From assembly GCA_040380225.1 (NCBI GenBank), contig JBEIJN010000014.1:1995-65994 (forward strand): DNA of 64,000 bases, written 5' to 3'. Positions 2,508 to 64,000 of the stretch are shown here, piece by piece. The notes below the pieces were generated by a model. The model ran no database searches and was not told where the DNA came from. It saw only the letters and a program-made list of their open reading frames with translations. The stretch comes from Verrucomicrobiia bacterium (lineage in GTDB: Bacteria; Verrucomicrobiota; Verrucomicrobiia; Chthoniobacterales; UBA6821). A program made the translations under genes and the position numbers. Within the stretch, counting starts at the first letter, position 1. Each line of letters starts with the position of its first letter.

Positions 2508-3800
2508 TCAAAGCTTCAAGAAGCGTTCATTGGCAAACCTGCACCAAGCAGTAATGATCAGTCCCGCCGCCGCGAGGTAGGCGAGACCGCTCCAGGCGAT
2601 CGCCCCGCTCATCCGTTCCATTTGCGCCCCCGTTCCGTAGGTGGCGGCCAGGCCGATCGCCACCGGACCGAGCGCACCGCCACCCCATCCGAGGAGATTC
2701 ATCAGGCCGGCGACCGAGGCCCTCTCCCGCGGACTCACAAAGTCAAAGACCGAGGCGAAGATCCCGCCGTCATACGCTCCCTTGCAGAGGCCGAAGCAGA
2801 CCATCGCACCCATCAGTGCCTCCATGGTCGGGGCACGACCGACCAGCACCACGCAGAAGGATCCCGCCATCAGCGCGACCGCCTGCACCAGCATCCGCGC
2901 TCCCGGGATCGAGAGCGACAAGCGGTCGGCAAGCATCCCCGAGAGCGGGGCGCTCACCGCGCTGGCAAGCTGGATCGCGGCCACGGCCGAGAAACCCGCC
3001 GCCACCAAGCCGAGATGGAATTTTTCGAAAAGGAAGGTTGGGGCCCAGATTAGGAAAATGGATCCCACCGCATTCGCACAGGCAAAGGCCCCCATGAGCA
3101 GCAGCACCGCCGGACGCCCGAGCAATCCCTGGAATGTCGGCAGGATCCCTTGAGGCTTATCGTGCGGTTGCAGCGGGATATCCTCCGATGCCCCGCGGAT
3201 CGGCTCGCGCAGGCGCCACCAGAGGAGCAGGGCGACCACGATGCCAGCACCTCCGAATCCGTAGAAGGCCCACCGCCACCCGTAGCGCTCGGCCAGCAAT
3301 GCTCCGAGCCATCCTCCGGCGATCGTTCCGATGTAGACCGCCGACTGGTGGAACGAGAGGGCCGTCGAGCGGGTGCGGGGACCATGGTAGTCCGAGAGCA
3401 TCGAGGCGGCCGCGGGAAAGTATACCGACTCCCCCAGCCCTATCAGGGCACGCACCGCGACGAACTGCCAGAGACGGCCGCACCAACCGGTCGCACCGGT
3501 CATGAGACTCCAGAAGAGACATCCTCCCAAGATCAGCCCCTTGCGGGAACGGCGGTCGCCCGCATATCCGGCAAAGGGAGCCGAGGCGGCGTAGACCCAC
3601 ATGAAGGCACTGCCGATCAAACCGAGTTGCGCCTTGGTGAACCCGAAATCACGCTCCAGAAGCGGAAAGAGACTACTGATCGCCTGACGGTCGGCGTAGT
3701 TGAGCAGGCAGACCATCCAGAGCATCCCGAGCACGATCCACTTCTCACGAACGGCGACAGTCGGAGCGAAGTTTCTACTGGGATGATTCATGGAGGGCAA
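2508..3800 (-). CDS. MFS transporter
   Basis: 430 aa, multi-TM. MFS signature region LNYADRQAISSLFPLLERDFGFTKAQLGLIGSAFMWVYAASAPFAGYAGDRRSRK (GDRxxRK-type loop). Confidence 0.85.
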   Translation of the reverse strand: MPSMNHPSRNFAPTVAVREKWIVLGMLWMVCLLNYADRQAISSLFPLLERDFGFTKAQLGLIGSAFMWVYAASAPFAGYAGDRRSRKGLILGGCLFWSLMTGATGWCGRLWQFVAVRALIGLGESVYFPAAASMLSDYHGPRTRSTALSFHQSAVYIGTIAGGWLGALLAERYGWRWAFYGFGGAGIVVALLLWWRLREPIRGASEDIPLQPHDKPQGILPTFQGLLGRPAVLLLMGAFACANAVGSIFLIWAPTFLFEKFHLGLVAAGFSAVAAIQLASAVSAPLSGMLADRLSLSIPGARMLVQAVALMAGSFCVVLVGRAPTMEALMGAMVCFGLCKGAYDGGIFASVFDFVSPRERASVAGLMNLLGWGGGALGPVAIGLAATYGTGAQMERMSGAIAWSGLAYLAAAGLIITAWCRFANERFLKL

Positions 3801-6588: not shown

Positions 6589-6788
6589 TCATGCATGAAA
6601 CGTCGTATTAAACAATACAATGCCATGTCCTCCCGATAGCTGGGGAAGTGTCGCTATATCCTAGGTTCAGGTCTCAGGTTTGCTTACCCGGCCGTTGCTT
6701 TGCAGCCGTTACGGCAGGTTTGATGGCACTTTGCTCCCGCAAAGCGGTGCCGCACTTTGCTACAGGGCTGCCTTCGGCAGTCTTCCGC

Positions 6789-6873
6789 GCCTGTTCCCAG
6801 GCTTGGTTCATCCTTCAGGTTTCAAGTTTCAGCTTTCAGGTTTCCCCTTCCCATTTTTCAGCCTTCAGCCTTT
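6789..6873 (+). repeat. 3'-UTR repeat module after bioA: covarying hairpin, then TTGGTTCA, then a GTTTCAG-type heptamer array
   Basis: GCCTG-TTCC-CAGGC (6789-6802), TTGGTTCA (6803-6810), then CCTTCAGGTTTCAAGTTTCAGCTTTCAGGTTTCC...TTTTTCAGCCTTCAGCC up to the bioA stop at 6875. Confidence 0.7.
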
Positions 6874-9752: not shown

Positions 9753-10014
9753 AAGTGGAATGCCGCCAACTCCTTGACGACAAGGTCTGAGCGGGCGAAT
9801 GGGTGGCGAATTAACTCGCGTGCTCCCGCACGTCTCGCCTTTCAGGCTGGCTTTGCCAGTCTACCTCGCTTTTTCCATAAGCTCGGTTCTCTTCTCGGGT
9901 ATCTCAAACCTGCCCTTGATAGGGATTCTATTTTTGATGGTGAGCTAGGCGCGCGAGCAATGCCGTAGTAAACCTACGGCAAGCGAAGAGCAACAAAGCT
10001 CACCGCAAAAAAAG

Positions 10015-10090
<76 letters not shown>

Positions 10091-16029: not shown

Positions 16030-17154
16030 ATGAAAAATGATTCATCCAAACACGGGGGATTCCTCCCGGGACTCATCCGCCGCGAGTGGGTGCTACTGGC
16101 CAGTTACGGGACATCGGCCCTATTTCTCACGCAGGGCGCATCGTGGCTTGCAACCAACCCCGGACTGGCATGCGGCGCGGTCTTCTTCGTCTGGCTCTTC
16201 ACGGTGATGATGGCCTCCGCGTTCGCCATCTCACGCCATGCCGACCATCTCGCCCTGCAACTCAAAGAACCGCTCGGCACGCTGGTCCTCACCCTTGCGG
16301 TTACCAGCATCGAGGTGATGATGATCTCTGCCCTGATGCTCAAGGGCAACAATCCCGCACTGGCCAGGGACACGATGTTTTCTGTGGTGATGATCGTGCT
16401 GGGTGGACTCCTCGGCACGGCCCTGCTCACGGGAGGACTCCGCTTCGGGGAGCAGAATTTCAACATCAAGGGGGTGAACTCGTTTTTGGGCCTCATTCTA
16501 CCCCTGTCGGTCCTCTCGCTGGTGATGCCCAACTTCACCATTTCCGGGGGCGAGGGTTCGTTCTCGGTTATGCACGAGGTGAGTCTGATGCTCCTATCCT
16601 TCGCCATCTACGGAATCTTCCTCGCCGTGCAGACCAGGAGGCACCAGGAATTCTTCAATGAAAGGGAGACCGAATCCGCAAGCGGGGAGGAACATGAGAT
16701 CTGCGCCCCACCCCTCGTGGAGGCGCTGCTGATGATCCTTCACATGATACCGCTGGTCGTTCTCTCCAAGCAACTGGCCCGCCTGCTGGACTTCAGCATC
16801 GATTGCGGCGGCTTCCCAGCAGCACTGGGAGGCCTCGTGGTGGCCGTCCTCAGCCTGTCTCCCGAGGCATTGACCGCCATTCAGGCGGCGACTCGCAACC
16901 AGATGCAGCGCTCGGTGAACGTAATGCTGGGCTCCGTGCTTGCAACGATTGGAATGACGGTGCCTGCGGCGCTGGGCATCAGCCTCTTCACGGGAAAGCC
17001 GATCCATCTCGGCCTCTCCCCCATCTCGATGACCCTACTCGCAGTGACGCTGGGCAGTTGCATCATCACCTTCGGTCAGGGACAGACGAATATCCTGCAG
17101 GGATTCGTCCACCTGCTCCTCTTCGCAGCCTACATCGTGCTGATGTTTGACTGA
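16030..17154 (+). CDS. chaA: Ca2+/H+ antiporter (ChaA/CaCA family)
   Basis: 374 aa, about 11 TM. Two alpha-repeat-like regions: LVLTLAVTSIEVMMISALM and VVAVLSLSPEALTAIQAA. Confidence 0.75.
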   Translation: MKNDSSKHGGFLPGLIRREWVLLASYGTSALFLTQGASWLATNPGLACGAVFFVWLFTVMMASAFAISRHADHLALQLKEPLGTLVLTLAVTSIEVMMISALMLKGNNPALARDTMFSVVMIVLGGLLGTALLTGGLRFGEQNFNIKGVNSFLGLILPLSVLSLVMPNFTISGGEGSFSVMHEVSLMLLSFAIYGIFLAVQTRRHQEFFNERETESASGEEHEICAPPLVEALLMILHMIPLVVLSKQLARLLDFSIDCGGFPAALGGLVVAVLSLSPEALTAIQAATRNQMQRSVNVMLGSVLATIGMTVPAALGISLFTGKPIHLGLSPISMTLLAVTLGSCIITFGQGQTNILQGFVHLLLFAAYIVLMFD

Positions 17155-17428
17155 GGAAGCGCTGATTAAATCCCATGAAGGCCGCTGAAGAGCATTTGCT
17201 GATTTTTGAAGGCGCGAGCGCGGGGCGATACCCGCAGCGGTCTCGCCCGAGCGAGCAAATCGGCAAAAATCGACAAATGGCTTCAGCCCTTTGGGTTGCG
17301 GGGATAACAGGCCGGGGGCTGCGTTGGCTTGGCACTTACAGCCCACTGAGGGGATGCTCGTGCCAAGCCGCCTTGCCCGCGGCACATTCTTCCCGCAACG
17401 GCCTCTATGCGATTTAATCAGCGTTTCC
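17155..17428. repeat. 274-bp element bounded by 18-bp terminal inverted repeats (MITE-like or giant hairpin) filling the chaA/folB convergent gap
   Basis: GGAAGCGCTGATTAAATC (17155-17172) against the reverse complement of GATTTAATCAGCGTTTCC (17411-17428): 17/18 match, 13 contiguous. It starts 1 nt after the chaA stop. Confidence 0.55.
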
Positions 17429-17475
17429 CTAGGGAAGCGTCGACAGTCGAAAGACGAGGGTCGAGAGCCTGAGTT

Positions 17476-20895: not shown

Positions 20896-20984
20896 CCCGC
20901 AGAGGCGCTGAGAACGCAGAGAAAATAAAAGCCAATTTTTCCTTCTCCGATCACTTCATCTCCGCGCCTCTGCGACTCTGCGGG
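20896..20984. repeat. GCGCAGAG-family inverted repeat pair
   Basis: CCCGCAGAGGCGCTGAGAACGCAGAG (20896-20921) and CTCCGCGCCTCTGCGACTCTGCGGG (20960-20984). The ends CCCGCAGAG / CTCTGCGGG are perfectly complementary. Confidence 0.55.
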
Positions 20985-20992
20985 AAAACTCA

Positions 20993-29865: not shown

Positions 29866-30063
29866 CTCGCGCAGAGACGCAGAGGCGCGGAGTAAAAGAC
29901 AAAGGATTGGGTCCGGAGAAGGTTGTCAGCGTTACTCCTATCGAATCGGAGAATCACTTGGCCGATTCATAATGGGGTCTGACGACTACTTTCAAGGGAG
30001 ATGTTTCTAAAGACGCATTGCCATTGGTCATAAAAACTCTGCGCCTCTGCGTCTCTGCGCGAG
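29866..30063. repeat. 198-bp unit bounded by 27-bp GCGCAGAG-family inverted repeats (MITE-like)
   Basis: CTCGCGCAGAGACGCAGAGGCGCGGAG (29866-29892) against the reverse complement of CTCTGCGCCTCTGCGTCTCTGCGCGAG (30037-30063): 26/27 match. Confidence 0.6.
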
Positions 30064-30156
30064 ATTTCTTGCCTTGTAAATGCATCCAATAAAACCGCAA
30101 CCACACTAAAAGGAAGCACCGGGGCACGACTCATTAATCCTGGGCTCATTTTTTCC

Positions 30157-30183
30157 CTCCGCGCCTCTGCGCCTCTGCGCGAG
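30157..30183. repeat. Third GCGCAGAG-family copy
   Basis: CTCCGCGCCTCTGCGCCTCTGCGCGAG, same orientation as 30037-30063. Confidence 0.6.
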
Positions 30184-30233
30184 AAGTTGATCCGCTCTCC
30201 ATCCGCCGATATCTCAAGCCTCCCCTGGAAACG

Positions 30234-32962: not shown

Positions 32963-33056
32963 ACACAGGACACATGACACATGACACAGAACACGAATCA
33001 TGTCAAACAGAGGTCAAGTTCTCAGTTCCCAGTGGGAACCTTACCGCCACACCCCC

Positions 33057-35544: not shown

Positions 35545-35620
35545 GGTTAGGTTCTAGGTTTTTAGACTCTAGGAGTATAGGTGCTAGGTGATTGGTGATG
35601 GGAACTAGGTGATGGGTGAT
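35545..35620. repeat. Short-word tandem array (CTAGGTG / GGTGATG words) downstream of infA
   Basis: GGTTAGGTTCTAGGTTTTTAGACTCTAGGAGTATAGGTGCTAGGTGATTGGTGATGGGAACTAGGTGATGGGTGAT. C-rich and G-poor in infA mRNA sense. Confidence 0.5.
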
Positions 35621-35840: not shown

Positions 35841-35917
35841 AAAGGTTAAAGTTAGTAGGGAAAATATCTCTGTATGTCGAGGAAAATGTTATTTTGGAGG
35901 GTTAAAAAGATGAAAAA

Positions 35918-36065
35918 GTTAAAAGGTTAAAAGAGGTTCAACCCACCCCCGCAGAACTCTCGCACCGAAAGCCGCTGCACTTTCGGAAAAGTGGTAGCCG
36001 TCGTGAATACCTCTTCGGCCCACATTGTAACGATTCAACGTTATAACTCTTTTAACCTTTTTAAC
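35918..36065. repeat. 18/19-bp inverted repeat GTTAAAAGGTTAAAAGAG flanking the infA/exonuclease divergent region
   Basis: GTTAAAAGGTTAAAAGAG (35918-35935) against the reverse complement of CTCTTTTAACCTTTTTAAC (36047-36065); one indel. Extra GTTAAAAAG word at 35901. Confidence 0.5.
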
Positions 36066-36097
36066 TTTTTATCCGGATGCGATAGCATCCGTGCTTC

Positions 36098-37951: not shown

Positions 37952-38000
37952 GAGAAACTTGAAACCTGAAAGCTGAAACCTGAACCAAGGCGGGGGCGAA
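37952..38000 (-). repeat. Heptamer array plus TGAACCAAGG module, reverse orientation (3' of the TPR gene)
   Basis: GAGAAACTTGAAACCTGAAAGCTGAAACCTGAACCAAGG-CGGGGGCG starts 8 nt after the TPR stop. It is the reverse complement of the 6789-6873 module. Confidence 0.65.
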
Positions 38001-38052: not shown

Positions 38053-38099
38053 CTGACAACCGACAACCGACAACTGACTCCCGACCTCCGACCACCAAC
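38053..38099. repeat. CGACAAC / CCGACC short-word array
   Basis: CTGACAACCGACAACCGACAACTGACTCCCGACCTCCGACCACCAAC. Confidence 0.5.
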
Positions 38100-50168: not shown

Positions 50169-52097
50169 TTACGGCATGACGGTTCGGTCGAGATAAGTGA
50201 CGTGATCTTTCACATACCCTTTGCGGAGATGGGCCTTGTCGAACCGGATGGGACCCTGCTCGTTCTCCTGGATGCACCAACCGTCGATGCACAGAAAATC
50301 AAGTGGATCGATCACCTCGGCACCGTTTGCCAGTGCAACACGTTTCATGTCCTTCCTTGAAATGAAGTCGCCGATTCCATTCAGGAACTCCTCCCGGCTC
50401 ACGGGAACGGGCCTGCTGATGCTGATGCCGGTGAAGGTCCTGGTGATGAAGTGACGTGGATCGAAGACATCGCCATTCGGGACGCTCAGCACCAGCACCA
50501 CCTCCTTGCCCTGCTCGTGTAGCGATCGAATAAGGGCTCCGAGGGCAGCGATAGCCTCGTTCTCACCTATCGGGGTCGCCAGAGAGTGACCGTTGATCTC
50601 AAACTTGCTTCCTTTCTTAAAATAAGGATCCCAGTTGGCAGCAATCACCACCCGTCGGATCAATGGGTTCTCCTGAAGCACGCCCATAAGACGGCCCATT
50701 GCAATCGCGGTGGTTTTTATTGGATCGATCACCCCGGGAATGGGTGGGCGACCGCCGGATCCCAGCATCAATACTCCTGTGTTTTTATCTTTGAGCCCGT
50801 TCACCACGATCCGGATGCGCGGCGCGTAATGCCACATGTTGCTGTCGCCAAGGTAAAGGGTTCGGATCTCCTTCCCACCAACCCTGCAGAGGTAGACATT
50901 CCCTTGAGTATCAGTCTCCCAACCATCGAAAAACCCTTGGTTTTTGGTGGCAAAAGCCACCTGCTCAATCCTTGCGGTCGTCGTCGGATAGATCCCCTTT
51001 CTCCAGATGATCCAACCGAAGATACCGGCAATGAGGAAGGATGCCACGAGCAACCAAAAAACAGCACGGGATCTCGTGTGGCGGAGCGGTTTCTCGATGA
51101 GATAGTAGGTGAAAATCGTCAGTACGAGTGCGACTCCCAAAGCCATCCAGATAACACCGGGCGGAGGATTGGTACCTTTGACAATATGCAGGAATGACAA
51201 GGCAGGCCAATGGAAGAGATAGAGCGGATAGCTGATCAGGCCGATCCAGACTATCGCCGGATAGGAAAGGAAGAAACGGTTGAACCAAGCTCCTTTTCCT
51301 CCCTCCATCACCAGAACCGTCCCGCATACTGGCAACAAGGCCCTCCATCCCGGATAGAAGGCATCCTCGTGAATGAAGGCAAAACCTGCCGCGAGCAGAA
51401 GTACTCCAACAAAGGATAAAAGATGCCTGTGTACCGGCACATCCTCCTCGTGCCCCCTTTCAAAGTGCCACCATGCCAGAAGCGAACCTCCGAGAAATTC
51501 CCATGACCTCCATGGGGTGAGGAAAAAAGCGGCGGAACCGCTTATGCGGGATATCAGGAGATTTCCGATCAACGAGGCCAGAAACAGCCCCCCCAGAACT
51601 CGGGCCATCGGCCAGCGTTTTCTGGCAACAAGGAGAAGCAGCGGGGGGAAGAAAATGTAGAACTGTTCTTCCACAGCCAGCGACCAGAGATGCAGGAGTG
51701 GCTTCGTGTCAGCCGCAGTATCGAAGTAACCGCACTCCTGCCAGAAGACGATGTTCTGGATAAAGACAGCTCCAGCCGCGACATGCTTCCCAAGTTGTTC
51801 GTATTCCCCCCGGAGCAGCACGAAGAACCCATAGGCAAGACAGAGTCCTAGTACTGCCACCAGCGAGGGAAAGAGGCGGCGAACCCGGCGCGCATAAAAC
51901 TCGGAAAAGCTGAAATCACCCGCCTTTACACCCTTGTAAAGGATCCCGCTGATCAGATAGCCGGAAATCACGAAGAAAATGTCCACACCGGTGAATCCTC
52001 CGGGCAACGCCTTGGGAAAGGCATGATAGACAATCACGCCGAGCACGGCGACAGCCCTCAGGCCATCGATGTCGGGGCGGTATCGCAGAGAGGTCAT
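50169..52097 (-). CDS. AT3-SGNH fused O-acyltransferase (OafA/YrhL-like), paralog 1
   Basis: 642 aa. YRPDIDGLRAVAVLGVIVYHAF, VDIFFVISGYLIS, LWSLAVEEQFYIFFP, ISYPLYLFHWP. C-terminal extracytoplasmic domain with LGDSNMWHY (SGNH block I-like). Confidence 0.8.
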   Translation of the reverse strand: MTSLRYRPDIDGLRAVAVLGVIVYHAFPKALPGGFTGVDIFFVISGYLISGILYKGVKAGDFSFSEFYARRVRRLFPSLVAVLGLCLAYGFFVLLRGEYEQLGKHVAAGAVFIQNIVFWQECGYFDTAADTKPLLHLWSLAVEEQFYIFFPPLLLLVARKRWPMARVLGGLFLASLIGNLLISRISGSAAFFLTPWRSWEFLGGSLLAWWHFERGHEEDVPVHRHLLSFVGVLLLAAGFAFIHEDAFYPGWRALLPVCGTVLVMEGGKGAWFNRFFLSYPAIVWIGLISYPLYLFHWPALSFLHIVKGTNPPPGVIWMALGVALVLTIFTYYLIEKPLRHTRSRAVFWLLVASFLIAGIFGWIIWRKGIYPTTTARIEQVAFATKNQGFFDGWETDTQGNVYLCRVGGKEIRTLYLGDSNMWHYAPRIRIVVNGLKDKNTGVLMLGSGGRPPIPGVIDPIKTTAIAMGRLMGVLQENPLIRRVVIAANWDPYFKKGSKFEINGHSLATPIGENEAIAALGALIRSLHEQGKEVVLVLSVPNGDVFDPRHFITRTFTGISISRPVPVSREEFLNGIGDFISRKDMKRVALANGAEVIDPLDFLCIDGWCIQENEQGPIRFDKAHLRKGYVKDHVTYLDRTVMP

Positions 52098-52108: not shown

Positions 52109-54046
52109 TTAGGGAGCAACGGTAAAATCGAGGTACATCAACTTATCCCTGACATATCCCGGACGGAGGTGCGTAGCATCATAGCGGATGGGACCATCAG
52201 TATCTTCGGCGATACACATGCCGTCCACGCAAAGGTAATCCATAGGGTCAATTACCTCCGCTCCGTTTCTTCGTGCCACCGCAGCGATCTCGGACAAGAA
52301 ATCCCCCCTATCTTCAAGAAACTCCTTCACAGTCAGTCGACCCGCCGAACAGCTGCGAACCCCAGTGAAATCCCTTGCGAAAAAACTTTTTGGATCGAGC
52401 AGATCACCCGACGGCACGCTTAGCACAAGCGTGACTTGTTTCCCGGACAGCGCAAAATTGTTTATTTCGCGCCCCAAATCCTCAAGGGCAGTTTTTCTTC
52501 CATTCACGCCGCTCATGGGTTGCCCTTGATGCAAGTATTTTGAGTGATCCATGAAATAGGCATGCCAGCGAGCTGCTATCACCACACGGTCAATTCTTGG
52601 ATCAGAGTTCAGTACCTCATGGATCTTTGGCATCAACGCCACACACCTTGGTTTTGCGGGATGGGTTACGCGGGGAATCGGGGGAACCCCGACAGATGTC
52701 AGAAAAAGAGCCCCCCTTGCCGGATTGGCAGACTGTTTAGTCAAGAGCCTCAATATTCGCGGTGCATACTGCTGGGCATTACTGTCGCCGATATAGAGTG
52801 TCTGCGGCCCTTCCCCTCCAGCATGGTTGAAGCTAAAGAGTTGAGCATCACCCAAGCACTGCAATCCCGCCAGCGAATCATGATCGCGCGTTGCCGTCAC
52901 ACACTTCTGAACATCGCCTGAAACCGATATTGCTGGGATCCAACCCCTGAAAATCGCCCAACCAGCAAATCCCAAGAGAAGGTAGATCAGGATGAGAGTG
53001 GGCAACACCCGGGCGGACATGCAGTACCTGATCTTTTTCTCAACGAGATAGTAAGTGATGAGCGTCAGCGCGAAGGCAACTCCCAAGGCCATCCAGATAA
53101 GTTCCGGCTCAGGATTCGCACCTTTGACGATGTGAAGGAACGACAATGCCGGCCAGTGGAAGAGGTAGAGGGGATAGCTAATTAGCCCCACATACACCAT
53201 TGCAGGATGGGAAAGGATCCTTCTGTTCACCCAAGCACCGCCGCCCCCCTCGATCACCAGCAGCGTACCCGCTACTGGCAGCAGGGCTCGCCATCCGGGA
53301 TAGGGTTGCGCCTTCGTCAGCAAGATCATGCCTAGCAGCATCAGGATGGCCCCCGCCCAGGAAAGGATCTCCCTGTGCTTTGGCTTCTCCGCATGATGAG
53401 CCCGATCATAGTGCCACCATGCAAGGAGACTTCCTGCCAGGAACTCCCATGCCCGATAGGGCGTCAGGAAGAAGTCTGAGGCTGCACTCTGATACGACAT
53501 CACCACGTTGCCAATGAAGGAACCGATGAGAAGCACGCCCATGATGGCTGCAGGCGGCCACTTCTTTTTCCAGATCAGCAGTAGGAGCGGCGGAAAGAAG
53601 ATATAGAACTGTTCCTCCACCGCAAGCGACCAGAGGTGGAGTAGCGGCTTGAGAATGGCCGCCGTGTCAAAATAACCGCTCTCCTGCCAGAAAACCATAT
53701 TCTGGATAAAGAGAGTTCCTGCCGCCACATGCTTTCCCAGCTTCTCATACTCGTCCGGCAGCAGAATGACCCACCCATAGCCCAGGCAGAGCAGCAGAAC
53801 GGTGATGAGCGAAGGAAAGAGCCTCCTGATACGCCGTGCGTAGAACTCCTTGAAGCTGAAGGGCCCTTCCCTATGACCCTTGTAGAGAATCCCGCTGATC
53901 AGATATCCGCTAATCACGAAGAAGATATCCACCCCGCTGAACCCTCCCGGCAATAACTTCGGGAACGCATGGAAAATGATGACGCCGAGAACCGCCACAG
54001 CCCTTAGGCCATCAATGTCGGGACGGTATCTCAGTGAAACACTCAT
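52109..54046 (-). CDS. AT3-SGNH fused O-acyltransferase, paralog 2 (tandem duplicate)
   Basis: 645 aa. N-terminal AT3 half is highly similar to paralog 1 (same motifs). The C-terminal half (IGDSNAQQY) is clearly more diverged. Confidence 0.8.
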   Translation of the reverse strand: MSVSLRYRPDIDGLRAVAVLGVIIFHAFPKLLPGGFSGVDIFFVISGYLISGILYKGHREGPFSFKEFYARRIRRLFPSLITVLLLCLGYGWVILLPDEYEKLGKHVAAGTLFIQNMVFWQESGYFDTAAILKPLLHLWSLAVEEQFYIFFPPLLLLIWKKKWPPAAIMGVLLIGSFIGNVVMSYQSAASDFFLTPYRAWEFLAGSLLAWWHYDRAHHAEKPKHREILSWAGAILMLLGMILLTKAQPYPGWRALLPVAGTLLVIEGGGGAWVNRRILSHPAMVYVGLISYPLYLFHWPALSFLHIVKGANPEPELIWMALGVAFALTLITYYLVEKKIRYCMSARVLPTLILIYLLLGFAGWAIFRGWIPAISVSGDVQKCVTATRDHDSLAGLQCLGDAQLFSFNHAGGEGPQTLYIGDSNAQQYAPRILRLLTKQSANPARGALFLTSVGVPPIPRVTHPAKPRCVALMPKIHEVLNSDPRIDRVVIAARWHAYFMDHSKYLHQGQPMSGVNGRKTALEDLGREINNFALSGKQVTLVLSVPSGDLLDPKSFFARDFTGVRSCSAGRLTVKEFLEDRGDFLSEIAAVARRNGAEVIDPMDYLCVDGMCIAEDTDGPIRYDATHLRPGYVRDKLMYLDFTVAP

Positions 54047-58521: not shown

Positions 58522-58553
58522 CTCAGGTTTCATGTTTCAGGTTTCAGATTTCG
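58522..58553 (+). repeat. GTTTCAG-type heptamer array in the wzm-wzt spacer
   Basis: CTCAGGTTTCATGTTTCAGGTTTCAGATTTCG, 12 nt downstream of the wzm stop. Confidence 0.65.
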
Positions 58554-59536: not shown

Positions 59537-59971
59537 TCAAATCACGCAAAGATTTTTCTCTTCCGCATCGTTCACTGCAGAAATGGGAATTTTTGTATCA
59601 AATGTCACGAGTCGCCCCTGGCGAGACACTGCCAATCCTAGCAGGTAAAGATCCGTTAAATATCGTGAACTATGAATGCGCTCGCATGCAAAGATGGCTT
59701 TGTTCCGAAGGGAAATGGAATCACCCCAAAATTCATGATCCGTCGAATCGACGAACTGGCGCATCTGGCCGATCAGATCACCGGGCAAGAACTGCATTGT
59801 CCGGCTGTATCCGGGATTGGACATGATGCGTACAGCTCCGTTTTCCGTGAGCGGACAACTGGCCCATCCATCCCCTCCATGCATTGCCCACCAACCATGC
59901 GCCCTCTCGTGAAATGAATGATCCGGATCAAAGAGCGCAATGATCACATTGATATCCAACAATGCCCGCAT
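59537..59971 (-). CDS. vapC: PIN-domain toxin VapC
   Basis: 144 aa. MRALLDINVIIALFDPDH, CPLTENG, YLTDLYLLGLAVSRQGRLVTFD. Confidence 0.8.
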   Translation of the reverse strand: MRALLDINVIIALFDPDHSFHERAHGWWAMHGGDGWASCPLTENGAVRIMSNPGYSRTMQFLPGDLIGQMRQFVDSTDHEFWGDSISLRNKAIFACERIHSSRYLTDLYLLGLAVSRQGRLVTFDTKIPISAVNDAEEKNLCVI

Positions 59972-59975
59972 CGCT

Positions 59976-60215
59976 TCAGATTCCCTCCTGACCCATCAAC
60001 TTTCGGGCATGCTCCAGAGTCACAACCTCACCGCGCGACTGCAGCAATGGAACCCCCCCGCGAGTCACCGGCGATCTCTTTTTTTCGTGCGCGGGAATCG
60101 TCAACCCTCGTCGAGCTAAGACGGAAAGAATGTGGCCGGCGGTACTCCCTTCTCGCTGCGCAAGTTCTTTCGCGGCCTGCAAAACATCTTCCTCTATATC
60201 CAACGTGGTTCTCAT
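59976..60215 (-). CDS. vapB: VapB-type antitoxin
   Basis: 79 aa. MRTTLDIEEDVLQAAKELAQREG is the typical MRTTLDIDDxL antitoxin N-terminus. It lies 4 nt upstream of vapC. Confidence 0.7.
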   Translation of the reverse strand: MRTTLDIEEDVLQAAKELAQREGSTAGHILSVLARRGLTIPAHEKKRSPVTRGGVPLLQSRGEVVTLEHARKLMGQEGI

Positions 60216-60388
60216 GCATCTGATGATAGTGCATCAATCTATCCAAGTCAAACCAAGTTGTGACACCCCTTGTCTTGTTTACCGATAACCGATTACCCAT
60301 TCCCAATCCCCTTTAAAGACCTCCATGCTCTTCATGGTTATTCCATTAAGATTTTTCATTTTCCGCCTATCCCTCCAGTCTTCCGCGC

Positions 60389-60575
60389 CGCTTCCCAGCG
60401 ACTTGGTTCAGGGTACTTTGAACTCGCTTGCTTTGCCTCGGCCTCTCCCTAGGCCCTCGTCCTACGGACTGCTTTGCAGGCTTCATCGTGCCTCCCGGCA
60501 CTCGATGATCGCAAGGCTCGACCCTCTGGGGCTGCTTTCAGCAGTCCTACTCGGTCTTCCCCAGACCTCGTTTCA
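60389..60575 (+). repeat. Full unit of the structured intergenic repeat, bounded by two hairpin+(T)TGGTTCA/TCGTTTCA modules
   Basis: CGC-TTCCCA-GCG-ACTTGGTTCA (60389-60410); TTTGAACTCGCTTGCT (60417-60432, identical to 63980-63995). Hairpins at 60440-60455, 60483-60508 and 60532-60544. GGTCT-TCCCC-AGACC-TCGTTTCA (60553-60575). Confidence 0.65.
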
Positions 60576-60734
60576 CTATCCCCATTTTCCAATTTCCTTA
60601 TTTCTAATTTCTAGATTTCCCAATTTTTCCCTCTCTACTCATTCATCATTCATCATTCATCATTTTGCATTTTCCCCTCCCCTCCCGTGAAGCCGTGGCG
60701 CCCTCTGGGCTACGATTTCATCGTAGTCTACCGC

Positions 60735-60817
60735 GTGCCATCCCAGGCGCTTGGTTCAAGTTTCAGCTTTTCATCTCTGGCACTCGACGCTCGACCCTCG
60801 ACCCTCGACTCAGCTCG
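60735..60817 (+). repeat. Hairpin+TTGGTTCA module, heptamer array and CTCGAC array overlapping the 3' end of the GT2 gene
   Basis: GTGCC-ATCCCA-GGCGC-TTGGTTCA (60735-60758), AGTTTCAGCTTTTCATC, CACTCGACGCTCGACCCTCGACCCTCGACTCAGCTCG (60781-60817). Confidence 0.65.
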
Positions 60818-61629
60818 TCCGCCCACCCCTGCACCATCAGCGGAGGATCCTTGAAGAGGTTCCAGCAGAGGTGATCGAAGATAGAGCGGGGCAATCTGAA
60901 GGGCTGTTTGGAGAGAAGATTACGGATCTGGAAAGAGAGGTTATTCCTATCCAGGGGGCCATTGTGACGCCGGCCAATCCGGGCAATCTCTCTCATCCGC
61001 TTCCACCCTCCCGTGTTGGTCTTTGTATCCTCATAGTAACGGATATTGGCCAGATGCTGAGGAATCGTTACGACCTTCCCGATTTTCGAGAGCTTCAGGA
61101 GCAGATCCCAGTCCATCGCATAGTGCAGAGACTCATCCAGGCCCCCCACTTTCCAGTAGGCATCACGCCTGAAGAACATGGCCGGCTGGACTGCTCCAAA
61201 GGCCCATGACAAACGTTTTGGGCAAAACTCACGAAAAGGAACTTTTTTGATAATACTCCCGTCCAGATCTGTCTTGGCTCCAACTCCGTAGATCACGACT
61301 GTATCCGGGTTTTTAGAGAATGCCTCTTCAACCGCATGGAGAGCCCCTGGGAGAAGGATATCGTCAGAGTTTAACCACCCAACGATCTCTCCAGTTGCCA
61401 CCCTCATTCCCTTATTGATCGCATCACTCTGGCCTCGGTCAGGCTCTACAAAGAGCTTCAGCTTCCCCTCCGTCTCCGCCTTCTTCCAGATCTCGATCAC
61501 CCCGTCAGTCGACCCTGCATCATAGACGATGTGCTCTAGATCCGGGTACTGCTGGACATCCAGCGAGGCCAGCATCTCAGGAGCAAAGACAGCCTGATTC
61601 AGGCTGGGGGTAATAATGGAGATCTTCAT
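60763..61629 (-). CDS. Glycosyltransferase family 2
   Basis: MKISIITPSLNQAVFAPEMLASLDVQQYPDLEHIVYDAGSTDG, LNSDD. Alternative start at 61668. The last ~18 codons are encoded by the repeat arrays. Confidence 0.8.
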   Translation of the reverse strand: MKISIITPSLNQAVFAPEMLASLDVQQYPDLEHIVYDAGSTDGVIEIWKKAETEGKLKLFVEPDRGQSDAINKGMRVATGEIVGWLNSDDILLPGALHAVEEAFSKNPDTVVIYGVGAKTDLDGSIIKKVPFREFCPKRLSWAFGAVQPAMFFRRDAYWKVGGLDESLHYAMDWDLLLKLSKIGKVVTIPQHLANIRYYEDTKTNTGGWKRMREIARIGRRHNGPLDRNNLSFQIRNLLSKQPFRLPRSIFDHLCWNLFKDPPLMVQGWADELSRGSRVERRVPEMKS

Positions 61630-61674
61630 TTCACTATTTTTCTCGGTCTCTACACTGTTGGATTTCACAATTTT

Positions 61675-62817
61675 TTAATTTCCCAACTCCCCTCCATCCA
61701 AAAATCGTGTGCCCTTTTCCAAGTCCATCACAATTGGCTCGGCATCCTTGTAACGCTGACAAAAGCGCTCCAGACCCCCCATGCGTTTCACTCTGCCTGA
61801 TTTCACTTCGATCGCCACAATGCCACGTTGGGTTTTTACAACGAAATCCACCTCGGCGCCACCCTCTCGCCAATACATGACCTCATCATAGCGCCGACAG
61901 AGTTCGGCACCCACCCCGCACTCAAAAAGCCGACCCTTCCATTCGATATCTTGATCGAGCGGAAAAGAATCCCTCTGGGCATTCACCAGCGCCGTATTGA
62001 GCGGGACGATTTTGGGGCTCGATCCCCGCTTTTTTATCTCCGATCCGCTATATTTTTGTAATACCTTGATCAGAAAAGCCCCCTCGAACAGTTCGAGATA
62101 ATGCTTGATTGTAGTTACATTCCCTGACTCCTGCAATTGCCCCAGCAGCTTTTGAAGGGAAATCTCCATTGCAGGATAGGCGAGGCACAACTGAAACGCC
62201 TGCCGGAAAAGAGCCGGCTTGTTCACGACGGCCAGCGACAACAAATCCCGCAGCAGAACCGGCTCAATAATCGAATGGTTGATAAAATCTCTCCACCGGG
62301 AGAAATCCCCAGTGAGTTCCGCCGCCGCCGGATACCCGCCGAATTTTAGAAACTCCTTCAAGCCCCATCCAAAAGCCTCGCGACACTCCGGCAAGCTCCA
62401 GTGTCCTGCGTGAATGACCTCGTAACGACCCGCTAGGCTCTCAGCCATTCCCTTCTGCATCAGCAGGCTGGCCGAGCCTAGCAAAACCACCTTCAAACTA
62501 CGAGATTCGCGATCCTCATCGAAAAGCCTCTTCACTCGCTCACTCCAGCCCGGCACTTTCTGAATCTCATCGATCACCAGCAAAGCCCCCTCACCCATGC
62601 CCCGCGAGATTTTCCAGTTCAACTCGATCCAATCTGCAGTAGGTGGTGCCACCTCATCAGCCGAGGCCAAATGCACAGGCCCCTTCCATCTCTGGGCAAT
62701 TTGTCGGAGCCCCGTGGTCTTTCCCACCTGGTGCGGCCCAGTGACGACCTGAATAAAGTTCAGCCTCTCCTGCAAACGAACTTCTAATTTTTTGCTAAAA
62801 TCACGAAAAAATTGCAT
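61675..62817 (-). CDS. AAA ATPase with a DUF4143-type C-terminal domain
   Basis: 380 aa. P-loop VTGPHQVGKTT, Walker B LLVIDEIQ, C-terminal nuclease-fold-like GAEVDFVVKTQRGIVAIEVKSGR. Confidence 0.7.
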   Translation of the reverse strand: MQFFRDFSKKLEVRLQERLNFIQVVTGPHQVGKTTGLRQIAQRWKGPVHLASADEVAPPTADWIELNWKISRGMGEGALLVIDEIQKVPGWSERVKRLFDEDRESRSLKVVLLGSASLLMQKGMAESLAGRYEVIHAGHWSLPECREAFGWGLKEFLKFGGYPAAAELTGDFSRWRDFINHSIIEPVLLRDLLSLAVVNKPALFRQAFQLCLAYPAMEISLQKLLGQLQESGNVTTIKHYLELFEGAFLIKVLQKYSGSEIKKRGSSPKIVPLNTALVNAQRDSFPLDQDIEWKGRLFECGVGAELCRRYDEVMYWREGGAEVDFVVKTQRGIVAIEVKSGRVKRMGGLERFCQRYKDAEPIVMDLEKGTRFLDGGELGN

Positions 62818-62828
62818 CTCTCAATGAG

Positions 62829-62846
62829 TCTACTATTTTTAGTAGA
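62829..62846. promoter_or_regulatory. Perfect 7-4-7 palindrome upstream of the AAA ATPase gene (candidate operator)
   Basis: TCTACTA-TTTT-TAGTAGA, 12 nt upstream of the ATG at 62817. An extra half-site-like TCTACC sits at 62851-62856. Confidence 0.3.
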
Positions 62847-62960
62847 TGCGTCTACCATTTATTTCATAAGAGAACTTTCCCGATAAAATCAACTCAGCAA
62901 CCTCAAATCCGTCATGACGGAGCCCATGTCCCTTTCCCCTTCCTCCTTGGATCCCTCTTG

Positions 62961-63101
62961 GATTGCCCTTTGCTTCGATCGCTCCCGCGATCCGAACCCT
63001 TGCGGGCTATGCGTCAGCGCATAGGCTACGCCGTGCCCCCCGGCACTCGGCGTTGTGGTTAATAATCGGATCCCCCTTTGCTTCGATCGCTCCTGTGATC
63101 C
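62961..63101 (+). repeat. Two ~34-bp direct repeats (each a UCCC/UCCU-loop hairpin) flanking two further hairpins
   Basis: GGATTGCCCTTTGCTTCGATCGCTCCCGCGATCC (62961-62993) against GGATCCCCCTTTGCTTCGATCGCTCCTGTGATCC (63068-63101). Between them: CTATGCG-TCAG-CGCATAG and ACGCCG-TGCC-CCCC-GGCA-CT-CGGCGT (63028-63053). Confidence 0.65.
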
Positions 63102-63175
63102 ATACACTTCATTTTCCCTCAGGCCACGGGATAAACAAACTTTCTGCGGATGAACCCCCATTTGGGCCCAAGGAC

Positions 63176-63556
63176 TCAGTTGCCAGCTTTCGGGAAAAAG
63201 CGTACGGCAGGAAGGTCTTCAAAGTGGCGATCTTGAGTCCATAAGTCCGCATCCACACTCAAAGAGGATGCATAGACCAGCGCGTCGGCCATAGCCAACT
63301 TGTGCCGGCAAGCTATCTCCGCCGCTGCATCTGCAATGGCATCATCGACGTGCAACTGATCGAACTTGGCAAGCACGCACACTGCCATTTCGCGGCCTGC
63401 CTCCCCCTTGTGAGTCAGCGTATAGCGGCCGACTTCATACCGAACAACCGCAGGTACGAAAAGCTGCTCAGCTTGAAGAGCAGGCTCAAACAAGCCGGCT
63501 CGATCTGAACCTGCCAAAAGCTCTATCCACCCGGAGCTATCGAGAACAACCCTCAT
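63176..63556 (-). CDS. vapC: PIN-domain toxin VapC
   Basis: 126 aa. MRVVLDSSGWIELL, AMADALVYASS, LWTQDRHFEDL. 4-nt overlap with the antitoxin. Confidence 0.8.
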   Translation of the reverse strand: MRVVLDSSGWIELLAGSDRAGLFEPALQAEQLFVPAVVRYEVGRYTLTHKGEAGREMAVCVLAKFDQLHVDDAIADAAAEIACRHKLAMADALVYASSLSVDADLWTQDRHFEDLPAVRFFPKAGN

Positions 63557-63774
63557 GGTAAAATCCGCTCCTCTTCGGAACGGATTGTTGAATCATCGAT
63601 CACCATTCCGCTTAGCAGCCCACGAATCTGATCGATCGATGGCTCCTTTACCAACCTTAACCCTGACGGCTCTGAAATTGCTTGCAACCTCATTCCGGAG
63701 GTTATTCCCAGGGCCTGGCGAGCCTCTTTTGGAATGACAATCTGATATTTGGAGGAAACAGTAACAGCTATCAT
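63553..63774 (-). CDS. vapB: AbrB/MazE/SpoVT-family antitoxin
   Basis: Start trimmed to MIAVTVSSKYQIVIPKEARQALGITSGMRL (SpoVT-AbrB looped-hinge motif). Confidence 0.7.
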   Translation of the reverse strand: MIAVTVSSKYQIVIPKEARQALGITSGMRLQAISEPSGLRLVKEPSIDQIRGLLSGMVIDDSTIRSEEERILP

Positions 63775-63932
63775 GTCTAGATGGTAAAGCGTTTTTACAT
63801 CGATGTCAATATGCTTTCCTTGAAGAAGCAAGAACGACTCCATTTCCCTGCTTTTCGACACAGTTATTTCTGCTCCTAAAAGCCTTCAGTCTTTTATCTG
63901 CTGATGGCTGGCCCCAGGCTAGCCGTACGGGT

Positions 63933-64000
63933 CCACTTTCGGTGGCTACTACTCGACCTTCCCATGGTCTCGTTTCAGGTTTGAACTCGCTTGCTCCCCC
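63933..64000 (+). repeat. End of one structured repeat unit abutting the start of another (cut by the window edge)
   Basis: CCAC-TTTCG-GTGG (63933-63945), GACC-TTCCCAT-GGTC-TCGTTTCA (63955-63977), GG, TTTGAACTCGCTTGCT (63980-63995). Confidence 0.6.

Follow-up and report, generated by a model that had tools for sequence, protein, structure and literature searches.

A four-hairpin intergenic repeat of Chthoniobacterales genomes with covarying stems and the behaviour of a small mobile element

What fills the 547-bp spacer between a vapB-type gene and a family-2 glycosyltransferase (GT2) gene in contig JBEIJN010000014.1 of a Verrucomicrobiia bacterium (Chthoniobacterales, UBA6821; assembly GCA_040380225.1)? 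The spacer lies in a stretch of 64,000 nt (contig positions 1,995 to 65,994), which was analysed as a whole and is called the window below. An earlier annotation made from the letters alone, here called the sequence-only reading, had described it as non-coding and built of modules that recur elsewhere in the window, with hairpin stems that differ between copies and remain complementary. All 17 strings that it quoted were found where it had placed them, and the flanking genes are as it had described them. Copies of an interspersed repeat specific to this lineage, decayed and nested, are piled up in the spacer; they number three, or four if a nested unit is counted. The repeat family is uncatalogued, is scattered through freshwater Chthoniobacterales genomes, is nearly confined to metagenome-assembled genomes (MAGs) labelled Chthoniobacterales or Spartobacteria, and behaves like a small mobile element.

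The copies, read on the minus strand, align well beyond the short modules noted initially. The repeat unit is approximately 90 nt long, non-coding, and consists of four consecutive hairpins (H1 to H4) joined by short conserved unpaired segments, according to the plan (N-S-A-A)/CCAAG-H1(GGGA loop)-CGCGGWAGA-H2-H3-H4(bulged, GGGA loop)-GTCAA, where the slash marks the left edge. The detailed order is TGAACCAAG, H1 of 5 bp with a GGGA loop, CGCGGWAGA, H2 of 5-7 bp, H3 of the form CCC(C)-loop-GGG(G), a single C, H4, and GTCAA. H4 is composed of an outer stem (GGCAC with GTGCC, or GCCAC with GTGGC), a 3-nt bulge, an inner stem (CTTGCC with GGCAAG), and a GGGA loop. The most conserved parts are the GGGA loops and the unpaired linkers CCAAG, CGCGGWAGA, and GTCAA. 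Between the left end and the left foot of H1 there are 5 nt, and a single nucleotide separates H4 from the terminal TCAA. The two termini, CCAAG and GTCAA, lack complementarity to each other, and terminal inverted repeats are absent. Three subtypes, A, B, and C, were distinguished. Type B reads TGAAACGAG-H1-CGAGTWGNA-H2-H3-CGAGCCTTGC-GGGA-GCAAGCGAGTTCAAA, and type C has the same order of four hairpins and a 3' end of the form GARGCAA.

This anatomy accounts for the modules of the sequence-only reading, which are real and recurrent but not independent of each other, since they correspond to H1, H2, and H4 of one unit of approximately 90 nt that occurs in three subtypes. Its module 1, a hairpin with a C-rich loop on the plus strand, is the 5' terminus together with H1; module 2, in which an outer stem differs entirely between two copies, is the extended H1 domain of type-C units; and module 3, a small hairpin with two compensatory pairs, is H2 of type-B copies. 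A 16-nt block found twice is the type-B 3' terminus, and the additional hairpins with UCCC loops are H4 of five different copies.

The family is not restricted to this contig. The pattern TGAACCAAG-N8-18-CGCGGWAGACT, which leaves H1 and everything downstream free and fixes as stem bases only the first two of H2, was scanned against 185,579 species, each represented by one genome. This gave 64 loci, which were numbered with labels of the type L001 and taken as 8-kb pieces. Fifty-five of them belong to MAGs with the label Chthoniobacterales, Spartobacteria, or Verrucomicrobiota, which represent at least 15 assemblies, and nearly all of these 55 possess a 14-nt gap and the same four hairpins downstream, in parts that the pattern left unspecified. 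The remaining 9 loci, which come from other phyla, differ in gap length and lack the hairpins, in agreement with the approximately two dozen chance matches expected from our arithmetic on the information content of the pattern. Counted among the 55 loci are those of a MAG labelled 'Proteobacteria bacterium WB4_3_0938' (L005, L060; RFPR01000007.1), which has three pattern matches. Its label or binning is probably wrong because RFPR01000007.1 is syntenic, at 83-88% identity, with a Spartobacteria contig (L018).

A covariance model trained on 52 pattern-found copies was then searched in 56 sources, namely, the 55 related loci and the window (approximately 0.45 Mb), and identified 100 copies, all of them outside called open reading frames (ORFs). 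The genome scan and the model thus gave many copies beyond those noted initially. A comparison with Rfam 15 gave no family match (window at gathering score; 59900-64000 at E ≤ 5; three loci with canonical copies at E ≤ 1), and no description of this repeat family was found in a literature search.

The covariation of the stems is strong. In the 100 model-selected copies, 91.9% of the stem cells are paired, compared with 71.9% when partners are shuffled and 33-56% when they are slid; 26 of the 27 base pairs show double, that is, compensatory, changes, and none of 500 shuffles reached any of the observed measures. When the 52 copies were aligned with MAFFT, which is blind to structure, 91.6% of the cells were paired, against 76.5% after shuffling and approximately 40% after sliding, and 21 of the 27 pairs had changed on both sides. 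These counts are no artefact of how the copies were collected, since the scan pattern fixed no stem beyond the first two bases of H2. The claim of a modular family with covarying stems is thus upheld on both alignments, and with it the view that the covariation reflects a constraint on hairpin shape and is more than plain duplication. Together with the further copies and the lack of a match in Rfam, this goes against the outcomes that the sequence-only reading had named as refuting it. The minimum-energy fold of a canonical copy consists of exactly the four hairpins, both as sense-strand RNA (z = -3.1) and as antisense-strand DNA (z = -4.0). The window copies and the whole spacer gave z values of -0.36, -1.15, and -2.24, and the whole spacer only weakly beats its shuffles because the local copies have decayed.

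Clear signs of turnover emerge from comparisons between related genomes. L060 and L018 are syntenic and differ by exactly one unit, and their alignment is free of gaps once CCAAG...GTCAA is removed. The filled site in L060 reads ...CTTTAGGCTGAA/CCAAG...GTCAA/TACTATTAGGCTG... (slashes mark the edges of the unit), and the empty site in L018 reads ...CTATTAGGCTGCAGCCTGTTAGGC..., with TGCA at the insertion tetranucleotide. There is neither a duplication nor an inverted end, and the low-complexity tract beside the unit is also present at the empty site. Downstream of a glcD-like gene, L054 has a copy on the plus strand and L053 has one on the minus strand at another spot, and three sister genomes have none; these two copies are independent gains. 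The left flank reads NSAA in 93 of 98 scorable model matches, and it is NGAA or NCAA in copies that the pattern left unconstrained. As several tandem junctions read TCAA/CCAAG, the unit proper can be defined as CCAAG...GTCAA, with an N-S-A-A site on its 5' side. Where copies are clustered, they nearly always follow each other head-to-tail on one strand (all minus or all plus), and only two mixed clusters were found (L021 and L038).

Another manifestation of this behaviour is nesting. Type-C units sit exactly in the GAA loops of GC-stemmed hairpins of two unrelated hosts. One host is H4 of the type-B unit in the window spacer, where the junctions read CCTTGCGA/unit/AGCAAG (60433-60508 within 60416-60575). 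The other is a module termed P, whose TGC-GAA-GCA loop carries a unit in L021 and L027 and is uninterrupted in L002 and L033. A further module is inserted within H2 of some type-A copies (L004, L024, L033, L042). Insertion and deletion turnover, together with nesting, points to a mobile DNA element.

At least one copy has nevertheless been kept in place. Five species-level genomes (L017, L039, L053, L054, L057) share a copy in the spacer between a fabI-like and a glcD-like gene, in sense orientation inside a co-directional gene pair and with locus-specific stems. The mean pairwise identity is 0.969 for the unit core, 0.979 for the 5' flank, and 0.941 for the 3' flank, compared with 0.753 and 0.685 at third codon positions of the two flanking genes, whose first and second positions are at 0.93-0.98. 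Since the identity of the unit is far above that of third codon positions, this copy is under purifying selection in place, and its locus-specific variants rule out homogenisation by other copies.

The sequence-only reading had hinted at the strand of the flanking genes as the relevant one, on which the GGGA loops would be GNRA tetraloops, and this hint received no support. Based on our own gene calls in the related genomes, made with a crude codon-usage-based gene caller, co-directional spacers hold 13 copies in sense and 15 in antisense orientation. A stem selected as RNA from one strand should tolerate G·U far above A·C mismatches, but well-aligned stem positions contain 44 G·U and 36 A·C. 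Neither a promoter nor a terminator is conserved beside the units, whose flanks vary from copy to copy, and a consensus scan of the window spacer gave no terminator-like site or U-tract. The three tests, based on mismatches, orientation, and signals, thus gave no sign of a preferred transcript strand. Whether RNA or single-stranded DNA carries the structure had been left open initially, and the evidence leans to DNA without settling the matter. When spacers longer than 100 nt are counted, those with copies make up 19 of 41 between convergent genes, 12 of 43 between divergent genes, and 28 of 118 between co-directional genes (p ~0.02), and many copies start 0-20 nt after the stop codon of the upstream gene. 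A single strand-linked feature was seen: the 40-nt flanks are purine-rich on the sense strand of the unit (68% on the 5' side, 62% on the 3' side), and the two flanks of one copy have 3.9 5-mers in common, compared with 2.64 ± 0.28 for flanks of different copies.

We lean, with moderate confidence, towards a hairpin repeat akin to repetitive extragenic palindromes (REPs), bacterial interspersed mosaic elements (BIMEs), and palindrome-associated transposable elements (PATEs), recognised as DNA, probably moved in trans, and exapted in part. Recognition would rest on the shapes of the hairpins and on a small number of unpaired bases, most likely in DNA that is single-stranded or extruded, which would be why stems change by paired substitutions and loops and linkers stay fixed. 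Copies would spread and be lost as exact units, with neither target duplication nor terminal inverted repeats, and would land beside an N-S-A-A tetranucleotide, both head-to-tail beside other units and inside their hairpin loops of the GC-GAA-GC type. Covarying stems with fixed loops, subterminal hairpins, the absence of a preferred orientation relative to genes, of terminal inverted repeats, and of duplications, and the tetranucleotide ends together suggest mobilisation in trans by a hairpin-recognising single-strand DNA enzyme, putatively of the HUH/Y1 kind such as the IS200/IS605 transposase TnpA or a REP-associated tyrosine transposase (RAYT). Some inserted copies may then have been co-opted by the host, as with REP and BIME, and kept by purifying selection. 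A more specific variant, to which we give only a minor chance, is a miniature element that targets hairpins, precisely enters the loops of other hairpins, those of its own family included, by N-S-A-A with the help of a single-strand DNA enzyme and is recruited by the host in operon spacers, or else a new class of structured RNA with a protein partner.

RAYT-mobilised REPs are domesticated relatives of elements that HUH/Y1 enzymes handle as single-stranded DNA. The present family resembles REPs, BIMEs, and REP doublets forming hairpins (REPINs) in being extragenic and multi-copy, with GC-rich imperfect palindromes in mosaics that occur in either orientation and persist in a lineage, in having subfamilies whose stems differ yet pair, and in that some copies are conserved and presumably used by the host. 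It differs from REP and BIME by its fixed series of four different hairpins over approximately 90 nt, as opposed to a single palindrome of 20-40 nt, and no RAYT has been linked to it. REPs are marked by an unvarying tetranucleotide, GTAG or CGTC, at the stem foot, and Opitutus terrae, a verrucomicrobium, is rich in REPs of the GTAG type (PMC3733652). IS608 has subterminal hairpins that its transposase recognises; the enzyme cuts on the left 3' of a TTAC in the flank and on the right at the TCAA that ends the element, insertion leaves no duplication, and the sites of cleavage base-pair with guide tetranucleotides located 5' of each hairpin foot (PMC3201880). The unit shares with IS200/IS605 elements and PATEs the hairpins just inside both ends, the lack of terminal inverted repeats, apparently exact insertion or excision without target duplication (here seen in one filled/empty pair and two nesting contexts), a conserved left-flank tetranucleotide, and a terminal right-end tetranucleotide, which is TCAA in both this family and IS608. 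The hairpin feet here are separated from the left and right ends by 5 and 1 nt, as against 19 and 10 nt in IS608, and two additional internal hairpins are present.

Several points weigh against this preferred reading. Guide/cleavage complementarity of the IS608 type is not evident by inspection (CAAG/CCAA versus TGAA; bases 5' of H4 versus TCAA), although the pairing in IS608 is non-canonical and goes beyond what sequence alone can reveal. Unlike in classical REPs, the tag is not a constant GTAG; the only candidate is a G[T/A]AG before H2, one base (A) from the foot of H2, in which T and A are both common at the variable position. Arrays are direct, whereas REPINs and BIMEs form inverted pairs. 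The clean filled/empty pair is a single case, and the nesting contexts number two. No transposase or RAYT came to light in a tblastn search of approximately 0.5 Mb, a weak test made with an IS608 TnpA query only, and a regular-expression hunt for isolated left and right ends bracketing a transposase gene yielded nothing useful, the right-end pattern being too strict. Local GC skew agrees with the orientation of the unit at 21 loci and disagrees at 23, in 8-kb pieces that are too short and noisy for this comparison. Finally, the strong conservation of one entire copy and the richness of the flanks in purines on the sense strand would likewise be consistent with an RNA role, which the retained copies may have.

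An RNA role could take two forms. The units may act within read-through transcripts as stable stacks of hairpins that end, insulate, or protect mRNA 3' ends, in either orientation, since the stems are near-perfect palindromes; this could coexist with mobility, as for REP. The enrichment in convergent spacers, the many starts just past an upstream stop codon, folding on both strands, and the sense orientation of the conserved fabI-glcD copy within its co-directional pair all speak for this explanation. It leaves unexplained, however, why the GGGA loops and linkers are the most conserved parts, since hairpins alone would not require them, and 12 of the copy-bearing spacers lie between divergent genes, while the window spacer has no terminator-like site or U-tract; we consider it rather unlikely. 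Still less likely is that the unit is a structured non-coding RNA (ncRNA) of the sense strand with a defined fold, binding a protein or RNA, for example as a GGA-loop sponge of the CsrB/RsmZ kind. Binding would involve the two GGGA loops, which are of the GNRA type, together with an H1 domain that is closed across an internal 2x2 loop. The GGGA loops conserved in H1 and H4, the purine-rich flanks, and the conservation of a whole copy in place are in line with this possibility, as is a closing helix on the outside of H1 that shows a few compensatory changes (from G-C to A-U in 4 copies and from C-G to A-U in 3). However, orientation relative to transcription is random, conserved promoters and terminators are lacking and flanks vary, G·U is not favoured over A·C, no Rfam family matches, and exact insertions and deletions as well as nesting are the behaviour of mobile DNA.

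The remaining rival, that the similarities arose by chance in a low-complexity GC-rich spacer or by simple local duplication in the window, is refuted. The spacer is indeed rich in tracts of period 7 or 8, and the copies of the window fold no better than shuffles. However, the window has 5 matches to the composite motif TGAAMCRAG-N8-18-CGMGKWRKA, all of them on the minus strand, against 0.00 expected from 100 dinucleotide-preserving shuffles, and the same unit, with strong covariation, recurs in at least 15 MAG assemblies.

Other known repeats offer further points of comparison. A sponge RNA of the CsrB/RsmZ type would be transcribed independently and have several hairpin loops that contain GGA; in the present unit, GGGA loops are found in H1 and H4, no conserved promoter or terminator is seen, and orientation relative to genes is random. 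BOX of pneumococcus, ERIC, RUP, Correia/NEMIS, and rhizobial RIME elements are modular, multi-copy, intergenic, predicted to fold, and often located at gene 3' ends; of these, Correia, RUP, and ERIC elements carry inverted repeats at their termini and usually come with target duplications. Compared with this group, the present family is without terminal inverted repeats or target duplications, has no sequence relation to it, and is restricted to Chthoniobacterales. The repetitive hairpin-forming elements and GC clusters of sponge and fungal mitochondria (PMC2800124) are likewise small hairpin units that invade intergenic DNA, but they belong to another genetic system and have no sequence relation. 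The present family is unusual in having a fixed unit of four hairpins, arrays that are direct, nesting of loop within loop, and at least one copy that is strongly conserved in place. Other candidates were rejected. A coding region or a CRISPR-like array is excluded by the anatomy, and length differences between copies are not multiples of three. A MITE, or miniature inverted-repeat transposable element, would have terminal inverted repeats and a target-site duplication, both of which are absent at the unit ends. An integron attC site is one long imperfect hairpin closed by RYYYAAC ... GTTRRRY, in this order on either strand, as opposed to a unit with four hairpins that are separate and with ends that cannot pair; some copies are flanked by tracts of the GTTAGGC type, but these repeats are direct, and their inverted partner, where present, is ordered GTTAGG...CCTAAC. 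A composite cassette of the form left end-vapBC-right end was also discarded, given that the spacer after vapC has no right-end hairpin and no unit ends bracket vapBC.

Interspersed hairpin repeats have been well studied in Proteobacteria but hardly in Verrucomicrobiota. A family of approximately 100 copies with very strong covariation and no sign of an RNA strand is a warning to ncRNA pipelines that read covariation as proof of RNA function. The combination of turnover and long-term retention allows selfish spread and host recruitment to be studied in one system, and the exact edges, the N-S-A-A and TCAA ends, and loop-in-loop nesting lead to a specific, testable prediction on the mobilising enzyme. 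Furthermore, the repeat accounts for long, odd-looking spacers in these MAGs, and the covariance model may be used for masking and annotation.

The layout of the copies in the window is given in Table 1. The window holds 5-7 copies or fragments in its 64 kb; the covariance model reports five copies, all on the minus strand, and with filters off also matches a free-standing type-C unit and, weakly, a second type-B unit. All three copies in the spacer are damaged, one by decay of H4, one by a nested insertion, and one by truncation to a 35-nt 5' fragment. The copy directly after the GT2 stop codon, with its broken H4, is the one that folds no better than shuffles (z = -0.36). Uninterrupted homologues of the split type-B unit are found in L015 at 3455(-) and L039 at 1075(+), with another just upstream of L056 7231(-). 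A supposed reverse copy at 37981-38000 turned out to lack the hairpin and to retain only the 9-nt TGAACCAAG, but it is a true remnant, as full copies are present at the orthologous site in L033.

Table 1. Repeat units, remnants, and adjoining tracts in the window (window coordinates)
Feature	Position	Strand	Evidence or remark
GT2 ORF tail, through a GTCGAGG heptamer tract to the TGA stop	to 60763	-	
Period-7 tract, minus strand GTCGAGG, encoding the last GT2 ORF residues and running into the left flank of the unit	60783-60809		Tandem Repeats Finder
Type-A copy 1, directly after the GT2 stop	60670-60758	-	Model match 60657-60762, 78.9 bits, E ~1e-20
Parts of copy 1	TGAACCAAG 60750-60758; H1 60736-60749; H2 60710-60726; H3 60701-60709; decayed H4 60674-60700	-	
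Low-complexity tracts of period 7-8, between copy 1 and the type-B unit	60579-60664		Tandem Repeats Finder rows 60579-60626, 60586-60619, 60639-60664
Type-B unit, H4 loop split by the nested unit	60416-60575	-	Model match 60461-60579, 25.5 bits
Parts of the type-B unit	TGAAACGAG; H1 60553-60567; CGAGTAGGA; H2 60532-60544; H3 60522-60531; H4 arms 60509-60519 and 60416-60432; GAGTTCAAAG	-	
Type-C unit nested in the type-B H4 loop, ending GAGGCAA	60433-60508	-	Holds module 2 (60483-60508) and hairpin 60440-60455
Type-A 5' fragment, 35 nt, TGAACCAAG-H1-CGCGGAAGACTG, truncated within H2	60376-60410	-	Model match 60346-60414, 32.8 bits, covering model positions only as far as H2
Further low-complexity sequence	60375 to ~60252		
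vapBC promoter-like site TTGACT-17-TATCAT, just upstream of vapB and outside the repeat family	60223-60251	-	Consensus scan 10/12, pattern match only
Best type-A copy of the window, between aminotransferase and mlaE genes, H3 disturbed	6720-6810	-	Model match 6707-6814, 81.9 bits
Module P, after the best type-A copy	6682-6717		
Diverged copy (AGAA/CCGAG...) beside a tRNA gene	9811-9890	-	Model match 9798-9894, 32.1 bits; H4 is the hairpin 9819-9832 noted initially
Free-standing type-C unit	62970-63053	-	Model match 62957-63053, 25.5 bits, filters off; H1 domain is the module 2 copy 63028-63053; H4 62977-62992
Partial duplicate of type-C H4 and tail	63078-63101		Direct repeat
Second type-B unit, 5' part 63923-63977	63923-63995	-	Weak model match 63888-63981, 9.1 bits; comparison with other type-B copies
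AGCAAGCGAGTTCAAA, 3' terminus of another type-B unit running off the window end	63980-63995	-	
Unit remnant, TGAACCAAG only, after a GAAACCT heptamer tract	37981-37989	+	No model match; L033 orthologous site has type-B and type-A units after the same tract
Period-7/8 tracts, part 1	6814-6872, 20960-20982, 29870-29892, 30037-30060, 30156-30180, 32963-32994, 35587-35620		
Period-7/8 tracts, part 2	35901-35932, 36044-36071, 37954-37984, 38055-38096, 58523-58552, 60579-60664, 60783-60809		

The genes next to the spacer are all on the minus strand. They comprise a PIN/VapC gene (59537-59971) and its small upstream partner gene (59976-60215) on one side, and the GT2 gene, an AAA_14/DUF4143 ATPase gene, and a second pair of PIN and MazE/AbrB-type genes on the other. 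The last ~17 GT2 codons and the stop (60763-60815) lie in the GTCGAGG tract and the left flank of the first unit, so that the native 3' end of this gene seems to have been replaced or lengthened by the repeat region. The sole Rfam match in the window is the tRNA gene at 10018-10090(-), and the diverged copy lies ~130 nt downstream on the same strand. Dense unit arrays are found among small genes of the toxin-antitoxin type, namely, three PIN genes in L015, Phd/YefM and DUF2442 genes in L056, and a DUF433 gene in L021. The array of the window (59537-63774) includes two PIN pairs, one of which is of the MazE/AbrB type, and the DUF4143 ATPase gene. All these toxin-antitoxin-type genes, in the window and in the related loci, are inserted in a polysaccharide cluster with glycosyltransferase and ABC-2 transporter genes. 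L015 is syntenic with the window at 58.5-61.5 kb but has different toxin genes. In our view, units have accumulated here in a variable and permissive region, and the proximity of the arrays to toxin-antitoxin genes does not reflect a functional link.

Imperfect tracts of period 7 or 8 occur in many spacers, each with its own flavour (GAAACCT, GGTGATG, ACACATG, GACAACC, CTCTGCGC, GTTAAAAA, and others). Their base composition is strand-asymmetric, and they flank units but also occur without them, including at the empty L018 site. They recall the intergenic heptamer direct repeats of Beggiatoaceae, Cyanobacteria, and Bacteroidetes (PMC4679880). In the spacer upstream of an infA-like gene (35909-36073), two tracts of the AAAGTTAAAAGG type face each other as inverted arms of 34 nt (79% complementary), with 97 nt of unrelated sequence between them; in L014 and L062, the spacer at the orthologous position holds four-hairpin units flanked by the same tract flavour, and in the window and L033 it holds none. 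A similar inverted tract pair flanks the L060/L018 spacer and the fabI-glcD locus. A family of tracts with an 8-nt period, CTCTGCGC/CTCCGCGC, is present at three spacers of the window (20899-20990, 29870-29892, 30037-30185), and the reverse-complement GCAGAGGCG nearby gives rise to inverted pairs of the same flavour within a spacer.

Further repeats and structures were encountered along the way. A MITE-like repeat of ~280 bp with inverted ends GGAAGCGCTGATTAAATC ... GATTTAATCAGCGTTTCC is located at 17154-17432 of the window and has at least 8 copies, 74-94% identical, in L015, L021 (twice), L027, L040, L047, L050, and L064, often near four-hairpin units. L036 has a SAM-I/IV riboswitch at 3230-3361(-), with 46.2 bits at a gathering score of 41.1, which is unrelated to the four-hairpin family. 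Two adjacent minus-strand ORFs of ~640 aa in the window (50169-52097 and 52109-54046) are tandem paralogues; several stretches of their DNA, offset by a constant 1946 nt, show 73-81% identity.

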